From NCBI GenBank assembly GCA_965204575.1, contig OZ241993.1:64001-128000 (forward strand): DNA of 64,000 nt. Reading direction: 5' to 3'. Positions 20,087-44,464 of the stretch are shown here, in pieces. The notes under the pieces are model-generated. The model was not told the DNA's origin and did not search any database. It worked only from the letters and a program-made list of their open reading frames with translations. How positions within the stretch are numbered: the first letter of the stretch is position 1; the number at the start of each line of letters is the position of its first letter. Both the position numbers and the translations under genes were made by a program. The DNA comes from an uncultured candidatus Porisulfidus sp. Lineage in GTDB: Bacteria; Pseudomonadota; Gammaproteobacteria; Poriferisulfidales; Poriferisulfidaceae.

Positions 20087-21454
20087 ATGCGCCACATGAT
20101 TGACCTCCTGTATCCCCGTTTTTTCCTTCTGCTGGCGCTCGCGCTGCCCCATGCAGCGTTGGCGGAACCGCCTCCGGTGTTCACCCGAACCCTGGACAAC
20201 GGCCTGAAAGTGCTGGTACAACCCGATACGCGAGCCCCGGTGGCCGTCCAGCAACTTTGGTACGGCGTCGGCGCCGCCCATGAATCCCCAGGCCAGACTG
20301 GCATCAGCCATTTGCTGGAACACATGATGTTCCGGGGCACCGAACGCTATCCCGGGGAGGCATTCAGCCACACCATCGCCTCTCTCGGCGGCCGCGACAA
20401 CGCCTTCACCGGCCGCGACTACACGGCCTACTACCAGATTCTCGGCAGCGACCAGCTTGCGGTCGCGATGGAGATGGAGGCCGACCGCATGCAGAACCTG
20501 CTCCTGACCGAGGCGGATATCGAAAAGGAACTGGAGGTCGTGAAGGAGGAACGCCGGCTGCGGACCGAAGATCGGCCCGAGTCCTTGGCGTTCGAACAGC
20601 TGCAGGCGACCGCGTTCCAGAACCATCCGTACGGCCAACCGGTGATCGGATGGATGAGCGACATCGCGCAATTGGACCAGCAGCAGTTGCGTGACTGGCA
20701 ACGGCGCTGGTACGCCCCCAGCAATGCACGTCTGGTGGTGGTCGGCGACGTGGATCCGGAGCAGATCTTCGAGATGGCCGAAGAGCATTTCGGGTCTGTC
20801 CCGAATCATGAAATCACACCTACCCCAAGGCGCCAGGAACCGGTGCAACGAGGCGCGCGCAATGTCTCCCTGCGCATTCCCGCCCAGACTGAATACCTGC
20901 TCATCGGCTACAAGACCCCGGTCATGGCGCAGCTGCCCAAGAAACAACGCTGGGAAGCCTATGCGCTATCCATGCTGACCTCCATACTGGACGGCGGCAA
21001 TGCCTCACGGCTGGCAAAACGGCTGGTCCGAGGCCAGAAAATCGCTGCCAGCGCCAGTGCCGCCTACTCCCTGTACAGCGCTCTCAACAGCCTGCTCGTC
21101 CTGGATGCCACGCCCAACCCGGGGCACACCGCGGAAGAGATGGAACAGGCCCTACTCGCAGAAATTGCCGATCTTCAGGCCAACCCGGTCAGCGAAGCCG
21201 AACTGCAACGCGCCCGTGCGCAAGTGATCGCGCACATGGTCTACGCCCAGGACTCCCTGCGCCATCGCGCCTACATGATCGGAATGCTTGAGACGAACGG
21301 CCTCGGCTGGGAAATCGAACAGCAACTGGTCGCCGGCTACCAGGCCGTCACCGCCGCACAATTGCAGGAGGTCGCCCAGCGCTATCTGACCGACTACACC
21401 CGCACCACGGTCACGATCCACCCCATCGACATCACTGCAATCCCGGCCCCTTGA
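20087..21454 (+). CDS. M16 family zinc peptidase, catalytic subunit
   Basis: HLLEH inverted zinc motif, NAFT, VVKEERR; signal peptide; start uncertain. Confidence 0.9.
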   Translation: MRHMIDLLYPRFFLLLALALPHAALAEPPPVFTRTLDNGLKVLVQPDTRAPVAVQQLWYGVGAAHESPGQTGISHLLEHMMFRGTERYPGEAFSHTIASLGGRDNAFTGRDYTAYYQILGSDQLAVAMEMEADRMQNLLLTEADIEKELEVVKEERRLRTEDRPESLAFEQLQATAFQNHPYGQPVIGWMSDIAQLDQQQLRDWQRRWYAPSNARLVVVGDVDPEQIFEMAEEHFGSVPNHEITPTPRRQEPVQRGARNVSLRIPAQTEYLLIGYKTPVMAQLPKKQRWEAYALSMLTSILDGGNASRLAKRLVRGQKIAASASAAYSLYSALNSLLVLDATPNPGHTAEEMEQALLAEIADLQANPVSEAELQRARAQVIAHMVYAQDSLRHRAYMIGMLETNGLGWEIEQQLVAGYQAVTAAQLQEVAQRYLTDYTRTTVTIHPIDITAIPAP

Positions 21455-22764
21455 CCATGCCTCGAATCCTAACTGCCAGTCTTCTGGCCCTCGCCATCGG
21501 CACGCAGGCGCAGGCCGGTCCGCGCATCGAACACTGGACCAGCGACAGCGGCACCCCGGTGTACTTCATTGCCGCCCCGCAGATTCCTATGCTGGACATC
21601 CAAGTCGTTCTGGATGCCGGCAACAGTCGCGACGGCGCGCTTCCAGGACTGTCGCAAATCACCCATGCCCTGCTCAACACCGGCGCGGGAGACCTGGATG
21701 CGGACGCCATCGCCCAGCAATTCGAGGACGTCGGCGCGGCCTACAATGCCGAAGTCTGGCTGGACCGCTCCATGCTGTCCCTGCGCACCCTGGTGGATCC
21801 CGAATGGCGGGAACAGGCCCTGCAGACTTTCGTGACGTTGATCGGCCAGCCCGGATTTCCAGAGTCGGAACTGGAACGCCGCCGGAAACAGATGGAGGTC
21901 GCGCTCAAGAAGATCGAGGAGGATCCCGGCGCCATCGCGAAACGGGCCTTCTACCAGGCCGTCTATCCGGGTCACCCTTACTCTTCGCCTACCGCGGGGA
22001 CCCGTGATTCCCTCGCCGCCATCACCCGAAGCGATGTCGAGGCGTTCTACCGGACTTTCTTTTCCGCCGCCGGTGCCGTCGTCGCGATGGTCGGCGCCAT
22101 AGACCGGACCGAAGCCGAAACAATCGCAAACCGTATCAGCCAAGCACTCCCGCAAGGACCGGAACCGGAGCCGCTGCCGCCGCCCTCCGCGGTGACCGAA
22201 GCGAAAACCGTGACCATCCCGCACCCGTCCGAGCAGGCGCATGTCCTGATCGGCCGGCAGGGAGTCGCCCGCGGGGAGGCACTTCACTTCCCGCTGTATC
22301 TCGGCAACTTCACCTTGGGCGGCGGCGGGTTCTCTTCGCGCCTGATGCAGGAAATCCGCAACAACCAGGGCCTCGCCTATTCCGTGTACAGTTATTTCTT
22401 CCCCATGAGACATCGCGGACCCTTCCGGCTGGGATTCCAGACACGGAAGGACCAGGTCGATCAGGCTCTGGACGCGGCCTATGCGGAGGTGCGGCGTTTT
22501 GTGGCCGACGGGCCGACCGAAGAAGAACTGGAGCACAGCCGTAACAGCCTGGTGTTGGGATTCCCGCTGCGGATCGCGGACAATGCCAGCATGATCAACT
22601 ACCTCTCGATGATCGGCTACTACCGCCTGCCCCTGGACTACTTGGACACCTGGGCGGCGCGAATCAGCGCCATCAGCCATGAGCAGATCGTCACGGCGTT
22701 CCAAGACCGGCTGGACCCCGACCAAATGATCACGGTGATCGTCGGTGGCCAAGACCAGCCCTAA
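21451..22764 (+). CDS. M16 family peptidase, non-catalytic partner subunit
   Basis: Lacks HxxEH; LGGGGFSSRLMQEIRNNQGLAYSVYS; coupled to preceding gene. Confidence 0.88.
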   Translation: MTMPRILTASLLALAIGTQAQAGPRIEHWTSDSGTPVYFIAAPQIPMLDIQVVLDAGNSRDGALPGLSQITHALLNTGAGDLDADAIAQQFEDVGAAYNAEVWLDRSMLSLRTLVDPEWREQALQTFVTLIGQPGFPESELERRRKQMEVALKKIEEDPGAIAKRAFYQAVYPGHPYSSPTAGTRDSLAAITRSDVEAFYRTFFSAAGAVVAMVGAIDRTEAETIANRISQALPQGPEPEPLPPPSAVTEAKTVTIPHPSEQAHVLIGRQGVARGEALHFPLYLGNFTLGGGGFSSRLMQEIRNNQGLAYSVYSYFFPMRHRGPFRLGFQTRKDQVDQALDAAYAEVRRFVADGPTEEELEHSRNSLVLGFPLRIADNASMINYLSMIGYYRLPLDYLDTWAARISAISHEQIVTAFQDRLDPDQMITVIVGGQDQP

Positions 22765-23362
22765 GAACCAACCGCCGCAACGGGTCCGCATCATCGCCGG
22801 CCTCTGGCGCGGCCGTTATCTCCAGGTTCCTTCCATTCCCTCGGTGCGGCCGACCCCCGCGCGGGTGCGCGAGACCGTGTTCAACTGGCTGGCTGGAAAC
22901 GTCGAAAATGCCGAATGCGCCGACCTTTATGCCGGCAGCGGAGCCTTGGGGTTCGAAGCCGCTTCGCGCGGAGCCCGGCAGGTCACGCTGGTGGACCGCA
23001 ATCGCACCATCGTGCAATGCCTGCGACAGGAAACGCAAAGATTTTCCGCCACGCAGATCGAAGTCGTGCATGCCCGGGCGCTGGCCTATATCGACTGCCT
23101 GCGCGAACCGCTTGACATCCTGTTCATCGATCCGCCATTCGCGCTGGGCACCGAACTGCTCGAAAAAACCTGCTCGCACCTTGCCGCATCCCGAGCCCTG
23201 AAAGAATCCAGCCTCGTCTACGTCGAATCCCCCGCCGATTGGATCGTGCGGATTCCTTCCCGCTGGACTTCGCTGAAATCCAAGCAGGCCGGGCAGGTCG
23301 GCTACCACTTGTTCGCGGCACGCCCCTACGTTCCATCCGACCCGGCGACGCCCTCCTCATAG
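22745..23362 (+). CDS. rsmD: 16S rRNA m2G966 methyltransferase
   Basis: RIIAGLWRGR, RPTPARVRETVFNWL, DLYAGSGALG, DPPF. Confidence 0.94.
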   Translation: MAKTSPKNQPPQRVRIIAGLWRGRYLQVPSIPSVRPTPARVRETVFNWLAGNVENAECADLYAGSGALGFEAASRGARQVTLVDRNRTIVQCLRQETQRFSATQIEVVHARALAYIDCLREPLDILFIDPPFALGTELLEKTCSHLAASRALKESSLVYVESPADWIVRIPSRWTSLKSKQAGQVGYHLFAARPYVPSDPATPSS

Positions 23363-23381
23363 TTACAATGGGGGGAGAACC

Positions 23382-23864
23382 ATGACTCGTTGCGCAATCT
23401 ACCCGGGGACTTTCGACCCCCTCACGTTCGGCCACATCGACCTGGCCCAACGCGCATTGCGCCTGTTCGACCGGCTGATCGTCGCCATCGCGACCGATGC
23501 CGGCAAACATCCCACCTTCACGGCGGAGGAACGCGTCGAAATGGCGCAACTGGCCTTCGCCGACGAGGGCGACAAGATAGAAATCTCTTCCTTCGACGGC
23601 CTGCTCGTCGATTTTGCGCGGGACATGGGGGCGCAAGCCATCATTCGGGGCCTGCGGGCCGTATCGGATTTCGAGTACGAGTTCCAGCTCGCCAGCATGA
23701 ACCGAGAGTTGGCTCCGGACCTGGAGTCCATCTTCCTGACGCCCGGCAAGGAATATGCTTTCGTTTCATCGTCGCTGGTCAAGGAAGTGGCCATGCTGGG
23801 CGGCGACGTCTCGCATTTCGTGCCCAGGGAAATCGAGCAGATGCTGATTTCCAAACTTCGCTAA
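23382..23864 (+). CDS. coaD: Phosphopantetheine adenylyltransferase
   Basis: YPGTFDPLTFGH, RGLRAVSDFEYE, SSSLVKEVA. Confidence 0.97.
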   Translation: MTRCAIYPGTFDPLTFGHIDLAQRALRLFDRLIVAIATDAGKHPTFTAEERVEMAQLAFADEGDKIEISSFDGLLVDFARDMGAQAIIRGLRAVSDFEYEFQLASMNRELAPDLESIFLTPGKEYAFVSSSLVKEVAMLGGDVSHFVPREIEQMLISKLR

Positions 23865-23901
23865 GCATAAGCCTTTCTTGAAATAGCCTGACTCCTGAAG
23901 G

Positions 23902-25578
23902 ATGTTCTTGGTGAAACGGCCGGCCCTGCTGCTCTGCCTGTTCCTCCTGTCCGGCGGCCTGTCGACGGCCTCGGCCAATCCACCCGGACATGCCTTGGCG
24001 ACCGCGCATCCGGCCGCAACCGAGGCTGGTCTCGAAATCCTCAATGCCGGCGGCAACGCCTTCGATGCGGCCATTGCGGTTTCGGCGGTTCTGGGTGTCG
24101 TGGAACCCTACAGCTCGGGAATCGGCGGCGGCGGTTTCTTCCTCTTGCACGACAGTGCCCGAAACCACACCACGATGCTGGACGCCCGCGAACGCGCCCC
24201 GCTGGCCGCCCACCGCGACTTGTACCTGGATGCGGACGGAAACGTGGACCGCGACCGGGCGCTGAACGGTCCCCTGGCCGCCGGCATTCCCGGAATCGCC
24301 GCCGCCTGGGGTCACCTGGCGGAGCACTATGCGCAACTGCCGCTCGCTCGCTCGCTCGAAACCGCCATCCATCACGCCCGGGACGGCGTGCCGCTCAACC
24401 CCAAACTGCGACAAGCCATGGCCGCGCGGGCAGAAGCTTTTCTGCGCTGGCCGGGTTCTTCGGTCTTCGTGCTGGACTCTCCCAATCCGCCACCCGATAC
24501 GCGGATCGTCCAAGACGACCTGGCATCAACTTTGGCCCTGCTGGCCGAAAAGGGAGCGCAGGGCTTTTATCGCGGCCCGCTCGCGGAAACCTTGGTTGCG
24601 GAAGTCCAGGACGCCGGCGGCATTTGGTCGCTTGAAGACCTCGAACAGTACCGAGTCGTCGAGCGGGAACCGGTCACGGTCCACTGGCGCGGTGCCGAGA
24701 TCGTGACGGCAGCGCTGCCCTCCGCAACCGGCGTCATGCTGGCGCAGGCCTTCAACATGTTGGGCGAGGACTGGCTCGACGAAAAAAGGGGCGACGTTCG
24801 CGTTCATCGCCTGATCGAGGCCTTGCGCCGGGCCTACCTGGAGCGTGCCGCACACCTGGGCGACCCCGACCACGTGGACGTTCCGGTCGAGCGACTGACC
24901 GGCGCGGAGCATGCCCGGGAACTGATGGCGGATTTCGATCCCGGGCACGCCACTTCTTCCCAAAGCCTCTACACGGCCGAACCGGAAGCCGGGAACACCA
25001 CGCATTTCAGCATTCTGGACCGGGACGGCAACTGGGTCAGCGCCACTTTGTCCATCAACGGCCTGTTTGGCTCCGGGTTCATCGCGCCCGGCACCGGAGT
25101 CCTGCTGAACAACGAGATGGACGATTTCTCCGCCAAACCCGGCAGCCCGAATCTGTATGGCCTGATCGGCAGCGAGGCCAACGCCATCGCACCCGGAAAA
25201 CGCATGTTGTCTTCGATGGCGCCGACTGCCGTACACCACGCCAACACGCTGGCCCTGCTCGGAACCCCCGGCGGCAGCCGGATTACCACGATGGTGATGC
25301 AGGGGATCCTGCAGTTCCTGCAAGGCGCCAATGCCGAATCCCTCGTCTCCAGCCCGCGACTGCACCACCAGGCCCTGCCGGACAAGGTCTTCATCGAGCC
25401 CGATACGGTGGTGGACCGAGAGCGGCTTGAAGCAAAAGGGCATGTGTTCGAGGTTGCAGAACCCTGGGGCAACATGCAGGTGGTGGTGTGGGATACCCAC
25501 GAAGCTCGGCTGGATGCCGCATCGGACCCCCGGGGTCTCGGGTCTGCGAAAATCGAGATGCTGAATACCAATGACTAA
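23902..25578 (+). CDS. ggt: Gamma-glutamyltransferase
   Basis: GGNAFDAA, SGIGGGGF, TTHFS nucleophile, LLNNEMDDF, PGKRMLSSMAPT. Confidence 0.94.
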   Translation: MFLVKRPALLLCLFLLSGGLSTASANPPGHALATAHPAATEAGLEILNAGGNAFDAAIAVSAVLGVVEPYSSGIGGGGFFLLHDSARNHTTMLDARERAPLAAHRDLYLDADGNVDRDRALNGPLAAGIPGIAAAWGHLAEHYAQLPLARSLETAIHHARDGVPLNPKLRQAMAARAEAFLRWPGSSVFVLDSPNPPPDTRIVQDDLASTLALLAEKGAQGFYRGPLAETLVAEVQDAGGIWSLEDLEQYRVVEREPVTVHWRGAEIVTAALPSATGVMLAQAFNMLGEDWLDEKRGDVRVHRLIEALRRAYLERAAHLGDPDHVDVPVERLTGAEHARELMADFDPGHATSSQSLYTAEPEAGNTTHFSILDRDGNWVSATLSINGLFGSGFIAPGTGVLLNNEMDDFSAKPGSPNLYGLIGSEANAIAPGKRMLSSMAPTAVHHANTLALLGTPGGSRITTMVMQGILQFLQGANAESLVSSPRLHHQALPDKVFIEPDTVVDRERLEAKGHVFEVAEPWGNMQVVVWDTHEARLDAASDPRGLGSAKIEMLNTND

Positions 25579-25699
25579 GAGGTCATTGCCGCCGTCTTCC
25601 AAGGCTCAGGGGGGTTATACTAGTCAACCTCCAAAACCGGTCCAGGCGAACCCGGGATTCCTTCCTTACGTATGGAGTATCTGGGAGATGAGGAGCTGA

Positions 25700-40996: not shown

Positions 40997-41875
40997 GTGA
41001 CTCTGGCTACAGAACTTGCCCCATTGCGACAACGGATCATCGATCGGTTGGAGGAGGTCCTGCCGGGACCTGAAGTCGCGCCCGAGCATCTGCATGCAGC
41101 CATGCGGCATGGGGCGCTGGTCCCGGGCAAGTGCGTGCGGGGATGCCTTGTTTATGCTTCCGGACGGGCTTTAGGAATAGAAGTCGAGCGTCTCGACCGT
41201 TTTGCCTGTGCCCTGGAACTGGTTCATGCCTACTCTTTGGTGCACGACGACCTGCCGTGCATGGACGACGACGATATCCGGCGGGGGCGCCCCTCCTGCC
41301 ACGCAGCGTATGGTGAAGCAACGGCCCTGCTGGCGGGCAACGCCCTGCTGCTGTGTGCCATTGCCGAAGTGTCAGGCGACAGGGAATCGTCAGGAGAACA
41401 GCGCAGTGCGAGTATCGACCGGTTGTGCCAGGCGGCGGGTTCGTTCGGCATGATGGGAGGCCAGCAGCTGGATATCGAGTTGGAAGACGCTGAAGAGTGC
41501 CAAATCGACTTGCTTAATGAAGTGTATCGGCTCAAGACCGGGTGCCTGTTCCATGCCTCGGTCATGCTGCCGACGGAACTGGTGCAGGCCAGCCCAGGGC
41601 AAAGAGACGCGCTGGACACGTATGCGAGAAAAATTGGCCTGGCCTTTCAAGTGCGCGACGATCTCGAGGATATGGAGCAGGATGCCCAGCTTGCCGGCGA
41701 CGGGACGCGCCCGACTTATCCGGTCCTTCTCGGCGTCGAGGCAAGCCGCGAGAAGCTCTCCGGTCTCGGTGCGGAGGCGCTGGCGGCACTCGACATGTTC
41801 GGAGACCGCGCCGACTTGCTGCGTTCGCTTGGGCGATGGCTGACCTCAGGCTCTGCGGATGAACAGTTGGATTAA
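40997..41875 (+). CDS. ispA: Short-chain polyprenyl (farnesyl) diphosphate synthase
   Basis: HAYSLVHDDLPCMDDDDIRRG FARM with Tyr at -5, GQQLD, KTG, FQVRDDLED SARM. Confidence 0.88.
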   Translation: MTLATELAPLRQRIIDRLEEVLPGPEVAPEHLHAAMRHGALVPGKCVRGCLVYASGRALGIEVERLDRFACALELVHAYSLVHDDLPCMDDDDIRRGRPSCHAAYGEATALLAGNALLLCAIAEVSGDRESSGEQRSASIDRLCQAAGSFGMMGGQQLDIELEDAEECQIDLLNEVYRLKTGCLFHASVMLPTELVQASPGQRDALDTYARKIGLAFQVRDDLEDMEQDAQLAGDGTRPTYPVLLGVEASREKLSGLGAEALAALDMFGDRADLLRSLGRWLTSGSADEQLD

Positions 41876-41923
41876 GATGAGGTTTCACGGATTTGTTTGG
41901 AATCCGTGCTAGAGTAAATCATC

Positions 41924-43330
41924 ATGCACCGAGCCTCCCGCTACCGTCTGTATCCGAACCAGACGCATGAGCGGCAGTTCACTCGGCTGTGCGGGGCCGG
42001 CCGATTCGTCTACAACGAATTGCTGGCCAGCCAAATCCAAGAGTACAAGCGTTTCGAGGCCGGCGAGAGAGAAAGGCCGGGCACCTCCGAGTTTGACTTC
42101 GGAAGGCGGTATGCACGCCTGAAAGCACAGGAAGGTCACGAGTGGCTGCGGGAGCTGTCAGCCGTGGTCGTGCGCGGCACGGGGGCTTTCCCGCTGGGGT
42201 CGGCGTTCGCGCATTTCTCCCGTCGGATCCGGGAGAGCAAGTGCGGCAAGCAGGCCGGATTCCCCCGCTTCAAGGTCAAGGGCAAGAGCCGGGAGTCGTT
42301 TACGATCCCGGAGGACGTGAAGATCCGGAGCAAGCGGCTTTGGGTACCGAAGGTGGGCTGGATCCGGATGAACCGCAAGGCGCAATCGCGCACGCAGGGA
42401 GCCGACCCTTGGGACAGCGGCGAAGCCAAGACCGCGGTGGTGTACCGGGAGCTGGACAAATGGTACGTGTCGGTGCTGTGGGAGGTGCCAGACCCGGACT
42501 GGCGTTGGCACGGCGGGGTCTGCGGGATCGACCGCAACTCGGAGAACATCGCAGGGGCCTGGAGCGGCGGGCGGAGGCTGATCGAGATTCCGTATGAGCG
42601 AATCGGGAAGTACGAGGCGCGGGCCCGACACTACCAGTGGCGGGCGAGCCACCGGGAGCGGACCGAACTGAAGGATTCTGACGGAGAACCGGTGCGCACG
42701 AAGTCGGGCAAGAAGATCAAGGTGGCCTCGAACCGACGCCAGCGCTTGCAGTTGCGTGCGGCGAAGGCGAAGCGCAAGGCGGCGGAGATCCGCAAGGACT
42801 TCAGCCACCAGGCCTCGGCCGACCTGGCTCGGAACTTCCAGCACCTCGTGCTGGAGGACCTGGACGTGCAGGCGATGCGGCGCTCGGTGCGGGGGACGAA
42901 GGAAAAGCCAGGGCGGCGCGTGAAGGCGAAGACGGCGCTGAACCGGAAGATGGTGCAGTTCTCTTGCATGGGAATGGTGGACCGCTTTCTCCAGTACAAG
43001 GCGGCAGATCTCATCCGGGTGCCGGCGCGGAACACCAGCCAGGCCTGCGCGGAGTGCGGGCACACCGAACAAGGCAACCGGAAGGAGCAGGCGCACTTCA
43101 AGTGCCTGGCCTGCGGGCACACGGACAATGCGGACATCAATGCCGCACGAAACATCCTGGACCTGGGATTGAACAGGCTCCTGGCCGGAGGCGCTCCGGT
43201 GACGGGACGGGGAGGGGACAACGAAGCGGGGGCATTCTTCTATGAGTGCCTAGTGGACACCGCCGATGATCCGTCAACGATGCAGTGGAACTACCGGGGC
43301 TCGCCCCCCGACTTCCACACAGAATCGTGA
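41924..43330 (+). CDS. tnpB: TnpB RNA-guided endonuclease, RuvC catalytic residues intact
   Basis: YRLYPN...GAGRFVYN; GIDRN, LEDLDVQAM, NADINAARNI; CAEC/CLAC zinc ribbon; stop inside right-end repeat. Confidence 0.95.
   Translation: MHRASRYRLYPNQTHERQFTRLCGAGRFVYNELLASQIQEYKRFEAGERERPGTSEFDFGRRYARLKAQEGHEWLRELSAVVVRGTGAFPLGSAFAHFSRRIRESKCGKQAGFPRFKVKGKSRESFTIPEDVKIRSKRLWVPKVGWIRMNRKAQSRTQGADPWDSGEAKTAVVYRELDKWYVSVLWEVPDPDWRWHGGVCGIDRNSENIAGAWSGGRRLIEIPYERIGKYEARARHYQWRASHRERTELKDSDGEPVRTKSGKKIKVASNRRQRLQLRAAKAKRKAAEIRKDFSHQASADLARNFQHLVLEDLDVQAMRRSVRGTKEKPGRRVKAKTALNRKMVQFSCMGMVDRFLQYKAADLIRVPARNTSQACAECGHTEQGNRKEQAHFKCLACGHTDNADINAARNILDLGLNRLLAGGAPVTGRGGDNEAGAFFYECLVDTADDPSTMQWNYRGSPPDFHTES
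43150..43308 (+). ncRNA. Putative omega-RNA, scaffold ending at CCGTCAA (TCAA 43274-43277), with internal guide
   Basis: GGACGGGGAGG (43205-43215)...GATCCGTCAA mirrors the first tnpB; hairpins CCGGAG-GCG-CTCCGG and GGCATTC...GAGTGCC. Boundaries approximate. Confidence 0.6.
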
Positions 43331-43390
43331 AGCGCCGTTAAGATGCCGTAAACCGGACGACGGTACACAACGAGCGGGGTTCTGGTTCAC

Positions 43391-44464
43391 ATGCCTACTT
43401 CAATCTCGAAGAGTCTGCAAGACTGTGACAGCGACCTCGCCTATCAGGACGCTATTTTGCAAGGTGTTTCCCGCACCTTTGCTCTCACGATCCCCCGGCT
43501 TCCCGATGCATTGCGCGACGTGGTGGGCAATGCCTATCTCCTGTGCCGGATTACAGACACCATCGAAGATGAACCAAGCCTGCCCTCGGAACAAAAACAA
43601 ATATTCTCGGAGCGCTTCATCGATGTCGTCGCCGGCCGTGAAAGCGTAGAACCCTTCGCACGGGAACTCGGTTCCTCGCTGTCCGCATCGACCACCGAGG
43701 ACGAACATGATCTGATCGCCAATACCGACCGGGTTATCCGGATTACTCATGGATTCCGCCCCAACCAGCGGAAGATCCTTGAGCGTTGCGTGGAAACCAT
43801 GGCGCGGGGAATGTCCGAATTCCAGCGGAACGCAACTTCCGACGGCCTGGAAGACCTGTCCCACCTTGATCGCTATTGCTACTATGTCGCCGGGGTCGTC
43901 GGCGAGATGCTGACGGAACTCTTTTGTGACTACTCCGCAGAGATAAATGAACGGCGCGAGGAGCTTCTCGCGTTGTCGGTCTCGTTCGGGCAAGGGTTGC
44001 AGATGACGAACATCCTCAAGGACATGTGGGAAGACCGACGCCGTGGAGCCTGTTGGTTGCCGCGTGATGTCTTCCAGGCCGCGGGGTACGATTTGAGTGC
44101 CATGTCCGCTGGGGAAACCAATCCCGCTTTCGCCAAGGGATTGTCCGAACTCGTGGCGGTCGCCCGCTGCCACCTGGAAAACGCACTCCGGTTCATTACC
44201 CTTATCCCTCGCCACGAAACCGGCATTCGCCTGCACTGCCTGTGGGCATTGGGAATGGCCGTTCTGACCCTGCGCCGCATTCATGCAACCCCCGCTTTCC
44301 ATAGCGGGCAGGAGGTGAAAATCTCGCGCCGCAGCGTGCGCGCCGTTGTCGCCGTCACCAACGCATCGGTCCGCTCCAACCTGGCTTTGAAGGCACTCTT
44401 CGGGGCACTGGCCTCCAGGCTTCCGCGCAGTCAGGTGGACTGCCTCCCGCAAGCGCAACCGTGA
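43391..44464 (+). CDS. Squalene/phytoene synthase family (resembles single-enzyme squalene synthases)
   Basis: [46 protein letters not shown]. Confidence 0.88.

Follow-up and report, generated by a model that had tools for sequence, protein, structure and literature searches.

A tnpB element with ISL3-type ends lies between two isoprenoid genes

The DNA analyzed in this work is a stretch of 64,000 nt, hereafter the window, and a 1.46-kb element residing in it between two isoprenoid genes (copy A) very probably represents a nonautonomous insertion sequence (IS) with ISL3-family ends, in which tnpB and a 3′ omegaRNA-like scaffold stand in place of the transposase gene. The insertion is 1458 bp long (positions 41880 to 43337) and is flanked on both sides by TTAAGATG. 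The upstream host gene (40997 to 41875, + strand), taken from the list of open reading frames, codes for a polyprenyl (farnesyl) diphosphate synthase (Pfam polyprenyl_synt, 7e-41), and the downstream one (43391 to 44464, + strand) belongs to the squalene/phytoene synthase family (Pfam SQS_PSY, 6.5e-58). A first-pass annotation had reported a perfect 8-bp direct repeat with the stop codon of the upstream gene inside it, and both observations hold: TTAAGATG is present at 41872 to 41879 and at 43338 to 43345 as left and right target-site duplications (TSDs), and the TAA of the polyprenyl synthetase reading frame (41873 to 41875) sits in the left duplication and remains intact. Between the duplications, the element is bounded by terminal inverted repeats (TIRs) of the ISL3 type, the left one of ~26 bp at 41880 to 41905 (+ strand) and the right one at 43310 to 43337 (− strand). 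The left TIR contains a hairpin with an 8-bp stem (CACGGATT...AATCCGTG). The gapped inverted repeat described at first pass is real, since the same ends were found on all six copies of the element in the genome and on copies in relatives. The probability of an 8/8 match at fixed boundaries is ~1.5e-5, and this value, together with the duplications across the insertions of the family, argues that the direct repeat did not arise by chance.

The empty allele, for which a comparison with relatives had been proposed, was then found in five of the five close relatives examined. These carry a single TTAAGATG in the context ...CAGTTGGA TTAAGATG CCGTAAACC..., so that all 1458 bp and one of the two 8-mers are missing from them. 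The scenario that had been named as fatal to the insertion model, a junction at the TCAA at 43277, is excluded by two results: homology between copies extends to 43336, and the empty sites retain nothing that lies between the two 8-mers. The contigs of other copies part from the window sequence exactly after 43336. In the frame common to those copies, whose right end reads ...GAAGCGCC, the element spans 41879 to 43336 and the duplication is ATTAAGAT/GTTAAGAT, a 7/8 match with its left member at 41871 to 41878; the frame used at first pass, shifted one base to the right, yields the perfect 8/8 match, and the element measures 1458 bp in both. Contigs from three DNA runs of one study were also compared with positions 41400 to 43800. 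Both junctions were covered, and no contig of these runs spanned across the element as an empty allele would, although rare empty alleles could escape contigs.

The element belongs to a family that has inserted at many sites

Six copies of the family reside in the source genome, and across the genus it is represented by 28 distinct insertions and occurs in 10 of 16 genomes. Both flanks are known for 26 of these insertions, and 22 of the 26 show 8-bp duplications with at least 6 of 8 positions matching (12 at 8/8, 8 at 7/8, and 2 at 6/8), the remaining four being devoid of a duplication (4/8 or fewer). The duplications are A/T-rich, and the 8-mer differs at every site. These data showed that members of the family have inserted at numerous sites. 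They also bear out the suggestion that the tnpB elements with TIRs and TSDs form a family and do not reflect a single nesting event. The six copies in the source genome are 79 to 92% identical to one another, all with open frames. Recent mobility is evident in one genome of the genus (G013), in which four copies with 97.8 to 98.9% identity reside at different sites. The arrangement is stable across subfamilies whose proteins share 58% identity.

When 400 genomes of the class were sampled outside the genus, none yielded a homologue at E ≤ 1e-50. A metagenome scan yielded 80 loci, of which only two are close, and both represent the insertion seen at locus L017. The broader claim that GIDRN-type TnpBs generally carry TIRs and TSDs found no support. 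Among the 80 loci, 50 had enough flanking sequence, and in these the TIR(+TSD) scores, whether ungapped or gapped, did not surpass those of mismatched-pair controls, with the exception of L085, an H-like element (see below) with a perfect 8-bp duplication. L083 and L084, which are known positives, fell inside the range spanned by the controls. The test therefore has low power and its negative outcome is weak.

The ends match resident ISL3 elements that encode a candidate transposase

A search with a profile of the element's ends, along the lines proposed at first pass for a DDE transposase beside such an end, retrieved three ISL3 elements in the same genome. These resident copies are 1348 bp each and 100% identical to one another, and each is flanked by a perfect 8-bp duplication. 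Their open reading frame matches DDE_Tnp_ISL3 at 9e-64, in addition to the ISL3 zinc ribbon and HTH domains. The right TIR of the tnpB element is identical to a resident ISL3 end at 21 of 24 positions and the left TIR at 19 of 24. This ISL3 identity of the ends within the same genome had been missed by the first-pass annotation. A fourth PF01610 match (genome positions 793189 to 793509) was rejected as a transposase, as it proved to be a desaturase-like reading frame with a partial ISL3-like segment.

No match to the Y1 transposase (Y1_Tnp, PF01797) or to the serine transposase of the IS607 type (Resolvase, PF00239) was obtained in the one-contig genome, which is 98.75% complete; the PF01797 search was positive in 6 of 14 genomes used as a control. 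Given the ISL3-matching ends and duplications in a genome without Y1 or serine transposases, we reasoned that the element is a nonautonomous one of the ISL3 type. Since it lacks a DDE_Tnp_ISL3 transposase of its own, it is a nonautonomous derivative and not an IS in the strict sense, and none of the fetched copies contains an ISL3 transposase. Transposase-less ISL3 shells do occur, as indicated by a 40-bp remnant at genome positions 624981 to 625020 in which the two inverted repeats stand end to end. ISL3 transposase genes were found in only 4 of the 16 genomes of the genus, and a tblastn search with the transposase against the 80 metagenome loci gave no match. The tnpB copies of the source genome are diverged (79 to 92%) and the ISL3 copies are identical, and hence there is no sign that the resident ISL3 moved the tnpB copies recently in this genome.

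The tnpB gene is intact and ends in an omegaRNA-like region

The sole long reading frame in the element is tnpB (41924 to 43330, + strand), which encodes 468 amino acids. Several features noted at first pass were found here as described: the ATG lies near the left end (44 nt from it), the stop codon (TGA, 43328 to 43330) falls inside the right TIR, and the encoded protein contains the GIDRN motif. Pfam recognizes the domains HTH_OrfB_IS605, OrfB_IS605, and Cas12f1-like_TNB, the OrfB_IS605 score of 30.2 bits being slightly below the 30.5 cutoff, and chains of solved TnpB structures match the protein with E values down to 2.9e-22. Among 11 sequences with identity down to 39%, D203, E311, and D404 are invariant, and so are Cys 375, 378, 394, and 397, which form a CxxC...CxxC arrangement; from their motif positions, we take the three acidic residues to lie in the RuvC motifs. 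Diversity in the family is biased to the third codon position (0.122/0.107/0.265). Judged by these residues and this bias, tnpB is intact and under purifying selection. A sigma-70 promoter scan of 41700 to 43500 returned 0 sites. In the alignment of copies, a candidate conserved TGnTAGAGT was seen by eye ~12 nt upstream of the ATG.

A different pattern was obtained for the 3′ part of the gene, since codons 415 to 440 show flat diversity across codon positions (0.07/0.07/0.086). The region concerned (43177 to 43336, + strand; profile match at genome positions 107177 to 107336) is ~160 nt long, overlaps tnpB over its final ~50 codons, and extends as far as the right end of the element. It includes a ~55-nt block that is near-invariant even across the subfamilies sharing 58% protein identity, and compensatory changes are seen at 4 of the 39 pairs in the consensus structure of the region. 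By this substitution pattern, the last ~160 nt is conserved in the manner of a structured RNA, and we predict it to be an omegaRNA-like scaffold. An Rfam scan of 41700 to 43500 at E ≤ 1 gave no match. By analogy with IS605 TnpB, for which the guide is described as beginning at the right boundary of the element (PMC10691335), a putative guide segment can be placed at 43337 to 43356 (+ strand), consisting of the right duplication and its flank, read out of the right end.

Insertions are preceded by a one-sided G

When the flanks of the 28 insertions were aligned, the base immediately 5′ of the left duplication (−1) proved to be G in 27 of them (binomial probability 1.6e-13 at G = 0.30), with T at −2 in 16 and C at −3 in 14, giving the consensus CTG. 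The information in this motif is low and resides mainly in one base. At the mirror position on the right, C at +1 is present in only 6 of 21 cases. Transposase-bearing ISL3 copies have G at only 6 of 28 flanks, a small control of 14 elements that includes 6 with different ends from other genera; for the copies of the genus with near-identical ends, the figure is 3 of 16 flank sides. In copy A, the place of the conserved (C)TG is occupied by TGG (41868 to 41870, + strand, 5′ of the left duplication in the family frame), a candidate TAM, and these bases, with the G at −1, already exist in the five empty sites. Read in the family frame, copy A would have a guide whose first base does not match the empty site (G versus A).

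Two further tnpB families with inverted ends and 8-bp duplications, H and G, were found in the genome, so that three such families reside there, each with different inverted ends. Family H includes the element that the first-pass annotation had called element 1 (1530 to 2841, − strand; 1312 bp), which is as described there and has other ends than the 41880 to 43337 element; its inverted ends are ~28 bp and its duplication is AGAATAAA/AGAACAAA. In the H family, A occupies −1 in 16 of 20 rows. Left ends of the G family could be placed at only two of eight loci.

Proposed mode of mobilization and maintenance

On the basis of the matching ends, the element is probably mobilized in trans by an ISL3 DDE transposase, e.g., that of the three identical 1348-bp copies, which would recognize the near-identical ends and produce the same 8-bp duplication. 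A role for TnpB in maintenance has in our view about an even chance of being correct. TnpB would be loaded with an RNA running out of the right end, whose guide would consist of the right duplication and the flank, and would cut the unoccupied allele beside the motif (consensus CTG) immediately 5′ of the duplication; the element would then be copied back through recombinational repair. Insertions without the motif would be lost, which would leave G at −1 in 27 of the 28 surviving insertions. Somewhat more tentatively, such homing may be how TnpB works with a DDE transposon making a variable 8-bp duplication: the guide would include the duplication, the TAM would lie immediately outside it on the left, and only TAM-adjacent insertions would persist. 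The one-sided G could be the footprint of a TnpB TAM.

Four other readings were weighed. An ordinary IS200/IS605 (IS1341-type) element, inserted by a Y1 transposase 3′ of a short target (TCAA), with the 8-mer and the inverted ends arising by chance, would fit the IS605 OrfB domain names and the ability of the left end to form a hairpin as IS605 ends do. However, the hairpin loops at the two ends correspond to each other as inverted rather than direct sequences, copy homology reaches 43336 and not 43277, and the genome lacks a Y1 transposase. Above all, the flanking 8-mers differ at each insertion and the empty sites lack the entire 1458 bp and one 8-mer, by which this reading of 41880 to 43337 is refuted, and we regard it as hardly conceivable. 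It is improbable, too, that a tnpB unit of the IS605/IS607 type became nested in a small ISL3-derived MITE, the composite moving as a whole and the architecture being accidental rather than coadapted. The 40-bp remnant at 624981 to 625020 shows that transposase-less shells exist, and three tnpB families with different inverted ends in one genome point the same way, but the tnpB unit is not separated from the inverted repeats by any remnant of an IS605 or IS607 end, the ATG follows the left repeat after only ~20 nt, the conserved RNA-like scaffold continues directly into the right repeat, and the arrangement is kept at 58% protein identity.

Still less credible is a domestication of the tnpB copies as host genes (e.g., RNA-guided regulators) whose mobility is over. 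The copies of the source genome are old (79 to 92% identical) with all frames still open, and an ISL3 transposase is missing from the majority of genomes in the genus; yet the catalytic D, E, and D are intact, the copies occupy unrelated sites, each with its own duplication, insertion A is missing from five close relatives, and the four near-identical copies in G013 testify to a recent burst. More serious is the alternative for the one-sided G/CTG, by which it is a target preference shown by the transposase when acting on the particular left end of this element, or a sampling effect, and no TnpB TAM at all. We consider this a real possibility, if not the one we would choose: DDE transposases often show target preferences, the duplications are A/T-rich in keeping with such a preference, the A at −1 in the H family, which has other ends, could simply reflect a different transposase, and the control set is small. 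A dimeric transposase, however, should leave a mirrored preference, whereas C at +1 on the right is found in only 6 of 21 cases, and ISL3 copies of the genus with near-identical ends have G at just 3 of 16 flank sides.

Relation to known TnpB systems and implications

TnpB is the ancestor of Cas12 and, to our knowledge, nearly all understanding of it comes from IS200/IS605 and IS607 elements. These leave no scar on excision and insert beside a fixed motif that doubles as the TAM. The present element resembles the IS1341 group of IS200/IS605 in its single tnpB, its IS605 OrfB domains, and its conserved RNA-like 3′ end at the boundary. Unlike IS200/IS605 elements with their fixed 4- to 5-nt target, it has TIRs and variable 8-bp duplications in a genome without Y1, and unlike IS607 elements (serine TnpA, no TIRs or TSDs), it has both TIRs and TSDs in a genome without a PF00239 match. 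With the ISL3 family it shares inverted ends starting with GG, a common core ...TTCACG..TT.GTGTGGAA, and 8-bp A/T-rich duplications; it differs from an ISL3 IS in lacking a transposase gene and in its cargo, namely tnpB and an RNA-like scaffold overlapping one of the inverted repeats. IS200/IS605 elements are described as having neither inverted terminal repeats nor target duplications (PMC13565253), and the same is described for IS1341-type elements of Haloquadratum (PMC3119063).

The partnership of TnpB with a DDE-type element is rare and has already been reported, and the present element is a further case. Altae-Tran et al. (2023, PNAS; PMC10691335) described DDE-transposase-associated TnpB branches, DDE-1 to DDE-6, in which TnpB occurs with DDE transposases and inverted ends, and solo copies sharing the ends of transposase-bearing elements were read there as mobilized in trans. 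Compared by description, the present family is like those branches in that TnpB lies within inverted terminal repeats and the 3′ end of tnpB is near the element end (PMC10691335); unlike them, no copy of it joins tnpB and a transposase. The main text of that paper names IS630 alone, for one branch, and does not contain the string 'ISL' (PMC10691335), while a 2026 review, citing it, lists 'ISL2, IS630, IS1031' (PMC13565253). The one-sided flank motif has no counterpart among the features described in those parts of Altae-Tran et al. that bear on these branches (PMC10691335) and may be a new finding. In the literature on TnpB and ISL3, no paper with the present architecture was found by title or abstract. 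Fanzors, the eukaryotic TnpB homologues, have been described on DDE-type TIR/TSD elements (Yoon et al., 2023; PMC10711439; PMC13565253), and they too pair an RNA-guided nuclease with such an element and a guide RNA, here predicted, that overlaps an inverted repeat. Their duplication is fixed (such as TA), the 5′ copy being interpreted as a portion of the TAM and the 3′ copy as belonging to the RNA scaffold (PMC13565253). The 8-bp duplication of the present element, by contrast, is variable. For this reason it would need to be included in the guide, and the motif would be situated upstream of the duplication.

How a nuclease serves a DDE transposon with a variable target duplication is treated as an open point in the 2026 review, where homing is said to bring little benefit to cut-and-paste DDE elements (PMC13565253). 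The genus provides a clean natural data set for this question, in which the 28 insertions are complemented by empty sites, by an autonomous ISL3 that matches them, and by two other TIR-tnpB families, and the analysis yields a concrete prediction, namely, that the guide consists of the duplication plus flank and that (C)TG, located upstream of the duplication, is the TAM. In genome annotation, the label 'IS200/IS605 family' on a solo tnpB can misstate the mechanism of mobility. If the proposed homing is true, each family would bear its own one-sided footprint, CTG in the family of this element and A at −1 in the H family. It would then be the nuclease rather than the transposase that filters the sites at which elements survive, and the TAMs of DDE-borne TnpBs would be readable directly from genomes.

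Boundaries and target-site duplications of the window element

The window element, a 1458-bp tnpB insertion at 41880-43337, is flanked by the direct 8-mer TTAAGATG (41872-41879 and 43338-43345), and the sole long open reading frame between the repeats is a 468-aa tnpB at 41924-43330. Its product matched the Pfam models HTH_OrfB_IS605, Cas12f1-like_TNB and OrfB_IS605, the last just below the cutoff, and carries the motif GIDRN. The ATG lies 44 nt from the left end of the element and the TGA within the right terminal repeat, while the TAA stop of the polyprenyl synthetase gene (40997-41875) falls inside the left 8-mer. Each descriptive statement of the first-pass annotation (the 8-bp repeat, the stop codon inside it, the ORF stop in the terminal repeat, the ATG spacing and GIDRN) was borne out by sequence, ORFs and Pfam.

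A single 1.82-Mb contig makes up the host genome, the window being its bases 64001-128000. The genome contains six full copies of the element, whose proteins are 77-89% identical to that of the window copy and whose DNA is 79-92% identical from copy to copy. When the flanks of the copies were aligned, a common left end (consensus GGGGCTTCGAGGTTTTGTGTGGAA) and a common right end (...TTCCACAC....CGTGAAGCGCC) bounded the homology, and these two ends form inverted repeats of ~26 bp. The flanking 8-mers are TTAAGATG for the window copy (A), CTTCTAAA for copy B, ATAATAGG for copy C, AATTAGGA / AATTAGGT for copy E and CGTTCGTA / CGTTCGTG for copy F; copy D has none. That the 8-mers are distinct argues for staggered cutting by a DDE transposase, since a fixed target of the IS200/IS605 type would repeat one sequence.

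Further insertions were collected from records titled Candidatus Porisulfidus, uncultured Chromatiales or Gammaproteobacteria MAGs and from 16 genomes of one genus, giving 28 distinct insertion sites after duplicate removal. Among the 26 sites with both flanks known, the duplication matched at 8/8 positions in 12, at 7/8 in 8, at 6/8 in 2 and at 4/8 or fewer in 4. The first-pass annotation had inferred a family of tnpB elements with terminal inverted repeats (TIRs) together with target-site duplications (TSDs), and the multiple copies with common ends and site-specific 8-mers support it. The empty allele that it predicted was found in the five closest relatives (flanks ~95% identical), which carry a single 8-mer in the context ...CAGTTGGA TTAAGATG CCGTAAACC...; a junction at 43277, the alternative, is ruled out by these empty sites. 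In the frame common to the other copies, the window element spans 41879-43336 with a 7/8 duplication, and the first-pass frame lies one base rightward with a perfect one; contigs from other copies, taken from public DNA runs, diverge immediately after 43336.

Two disrupted copies were also seen. In a relative (L019:3677-5060), a tnpB of this family is broken after residue 392 by ~1.4 kb whose opposite strand carries a 417-aa ORF lacking Pfam matches, and the outer ends and 8-bp duplication (CTTTTTAT) of the element are intact. At G000:C1:1295684-1295755 (the host contig), a truncated copy consists of a solo left end and the first ~30 nt of tnpB, followed by unrelated sequence.

Proteins at least 58% identical to the window TnpB fell into ~50 clusters whose most specific name was 'transposase [Gammaproteobacteria bacterium]', and the next identity level below this group was 42%. 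A sample of 400 genomes from the class yielded no close homologue, and a screen for TIRs and TSDs among distant GIDRN-type TnpBs had too little power.

Genomic context of the window copy

Within 40997-44464, the element sits in the 8 bp between the polyprenyl synthetase stop and the leader of the squalene/phytoene synthase gene, which starts at 43391. It has the same orientation as both genes, so both tnpB and the RNA could be transcribed by operon read-through, and the insertion is not necessarily polar. The left end includes a perfect hairpin with an 8-bp stem (CACGGATT/AATCCGTG, 41886-41908), conserved only partly in other copies, and a conserved extended -10-like TGnTAGAGT (41905-41923) ~12 nt upstream of the tnpB ATG. 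If the latter were its -10, the tnpB mRNA would be nearly leaderless; a consensus promoter scan of 41700-43500 found no site.

tnpB and the omegaRNA-like region

In 11 TnpB sequences (down to 39% identity), the residues D203, E311 and D404 do not vary, nor do four cysteines, and tnpB diversity is concentrated at the third codon position (0.122/0.107/0.265). Judged from these patterns, tnpB looks functional. Profile match and conservation delimited an omegaRNA-like 3' region of ~160 nt (43177-43336), in which a ~55-nt block is near-invariant even across subfamilies with 58% protein identity. In codons 415-440, diversity is flat over the codon positions (0.07/0.07/0.086). Of the 39 pairs in the region's consensus fold, 4 show changes of both partners, among them those of a hairpin whose whole stem is swapped in the divergent subfamily. 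This stretch, a putative omegaRNA scaffold, looks as such a scaffold would when overlapping the tnpB 3' end and abutting the element end.

Copies of the omegaRNA-like core also occur away from any tnpB, at G000:C1:1479680-1479789, 1028845-1028927 and 775966-776063, with a fragment at 1563876-1563927. They show compensatory changes in the variable hairpin, two have ~200 nt of wider homology in common, and all could represent either remnants or RNA modules that stand alone.

An ISL3 transposase as the probable mobilizing partner

A search for the element ends beside a DDE transposase had been proposed at first pass. A profile built from twelve ends of window-element copies yielded three additional end pairs in the host genome, each bounding a 1348-bp ISL3 element. 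The three are mutually identical, have perfect 8-bp duplications (GAACATTT, CCTAAAGT and AATCTATT) and encode a protein with DDE_Tnp_ISL3 (9e-64), an ISL3 zinc ribbon and an ISL3 HTH. Their ends agree with the window element's right end at 21/24 positions and with the left ends at 19-21/24. Neither a Y1 transposase (PF01797) nor a serine recombinase (PF00239) was found in the host genome, whose 16 tnpB genes fall into three families, all with TIRs and 8-bp duplications.

The window element is thus very probably a non-autonomous ISL3-type carrier of tnpB and its predicted guide-RNA scaffold, and the simplest reading, which we consider likely, is that an ISL3 transposase moved it in trans. Several observations temper this reading: the tnpB copies in the host genome are old whereas the ISL3 copies are identical; ISL3 transposase occurs in 4/16 genomes of the genus versus 10/16 for the tnpB element; and the Pfam matches in five genomes amount to a desaturase-like ORF carrying a partial ISL3-like segment and, besides this, a single broken remnant. 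In G013, a related genome, four copies 97.8-98.9% identical at different sites indicate a recent burst of the window-element family.

The ORF in question (G000:C1:793189-793509; relatives L062-L066) encodes a 441-aa membrane desaturase-like protein whose C-terminal part weakly matches DDE_Tnp_ISL3 (profile positions 92-196); the match recurs in five relatives, and the segment may be a domesticated transposase fragment. A 40-bp palindrome at G000:C1:624981-625020 joins the outer ~20 nt of both ISL3-type inverted repeats head to head, without flanking duplication, and may be a minimal shell or deletion remnant.

Of the other tnpB families, H includes element 1 of the first-pass annotation (1530-2841 of the window, minus strand), has 7 copies in the host genome, is present in 8/16 genomes of the genus, and has 8-bp duplications and ~28-bp inverted ends (GGGAATTA...TTGACA) unlike those of the window element; no transposase with matching ends was identified. 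Family G (G000:C1:226531-227949, ~266600-268030 and ~362140-363560) encodes a protein ~40% identical to the window protein and has inverted ends (GGGAATTGTATACGATAATCC...) with duplications CTATAAAT (perfect) and AAAACTAG/AAAGCTAG. Genome self-comparison revealed more repeat families of 1.2-2 kb with copies at least 90% identical (G000:C1:13490-15469, 21431-25603, 713404-714859, 1066530-1068414, 1241919-1243330, 1378265-1379481, and partners); these may represent additional insertion sequences and could include the partners of the H and G ends.

A one-sided flank motif

In 27/28 insertions of the window-element family, a G directly precedes the left duplication on its 5' side; one base further out there is T in 16 and G in 7, the third base out is C in 14, and G is absent from the first duplication position (0/28). 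On the right, the mirror position (+1) has C in only 6/21. The motif is missing from the ISL3 copies that bear a transposase: G was present at 3/16 flank sides in the genus (n=8) and at 3/12 for six elements outside it. The latter came from 27 loci fetched and 26 scanned, seven with a TIR and TSD call; L169 was left out because its ends are unlike ISL3 (4/14 with it included). The bias toward G gave a binomial value of 1.6e-13 and Fisher values of 6.7e-9 versus ISL3 flanks and 4.6e-7 versus the mirror position, and the G pre-exists in empty sites.

If the guide were the right duplication plus flank, and if homing maintained only insertions adjoining a TAM (the motif adjoining a TnpB target), an orientation-specific signal on tnpB-bearing elements would be a TAM-like footprint. 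We propose this tentatively, as a possibility of slightly less than even weight. The chief alternative is that the transposase has a preference specific to this family's left end; a dimeric transposase is expected to have a symmetric target preference, however, and the observed signal is one-sided. Family H also has a one-sided signal with another base, A 5' of the left duplication in 16/20 rows (two of the same site), a signal compatible with footprint and preference alike because the H ends differ, and presumably the H transposase too.

Discussion

Six TnpB branches associated with DDE transposases, each with inverted terminal repeats, are described by Altae-Tran et al. (2023, PMC10691335), who also describe solo tnpB copies with identical ends that they interpret as trans mobilization. 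The window-element family resembles these branches in the architecture that the main text describes, and may be one of the six. For the DDE branches, that main text names IS630 alone; a 2026 review (PMC13565253) cites the same work for 'ISL2, IS630, IS1031', and its relevant passages call DDE associations of TnpB rare in prokaryotes and state that in Fanzors a fixed duplication serves as part of the TAM. A literature search on TnpB with ISL3 returned nothing on the architecture of the window element, and neither the flank motif nor the guide/TAM geometry that it implies for an 8-bp duplication of variable sequence appeared in the portions of the literature searched. Given the branches and solo copies in the former source and the associations in the latter, as there described, TnpB in DDE-type elements is already known, and the window element is a well-documented further example.
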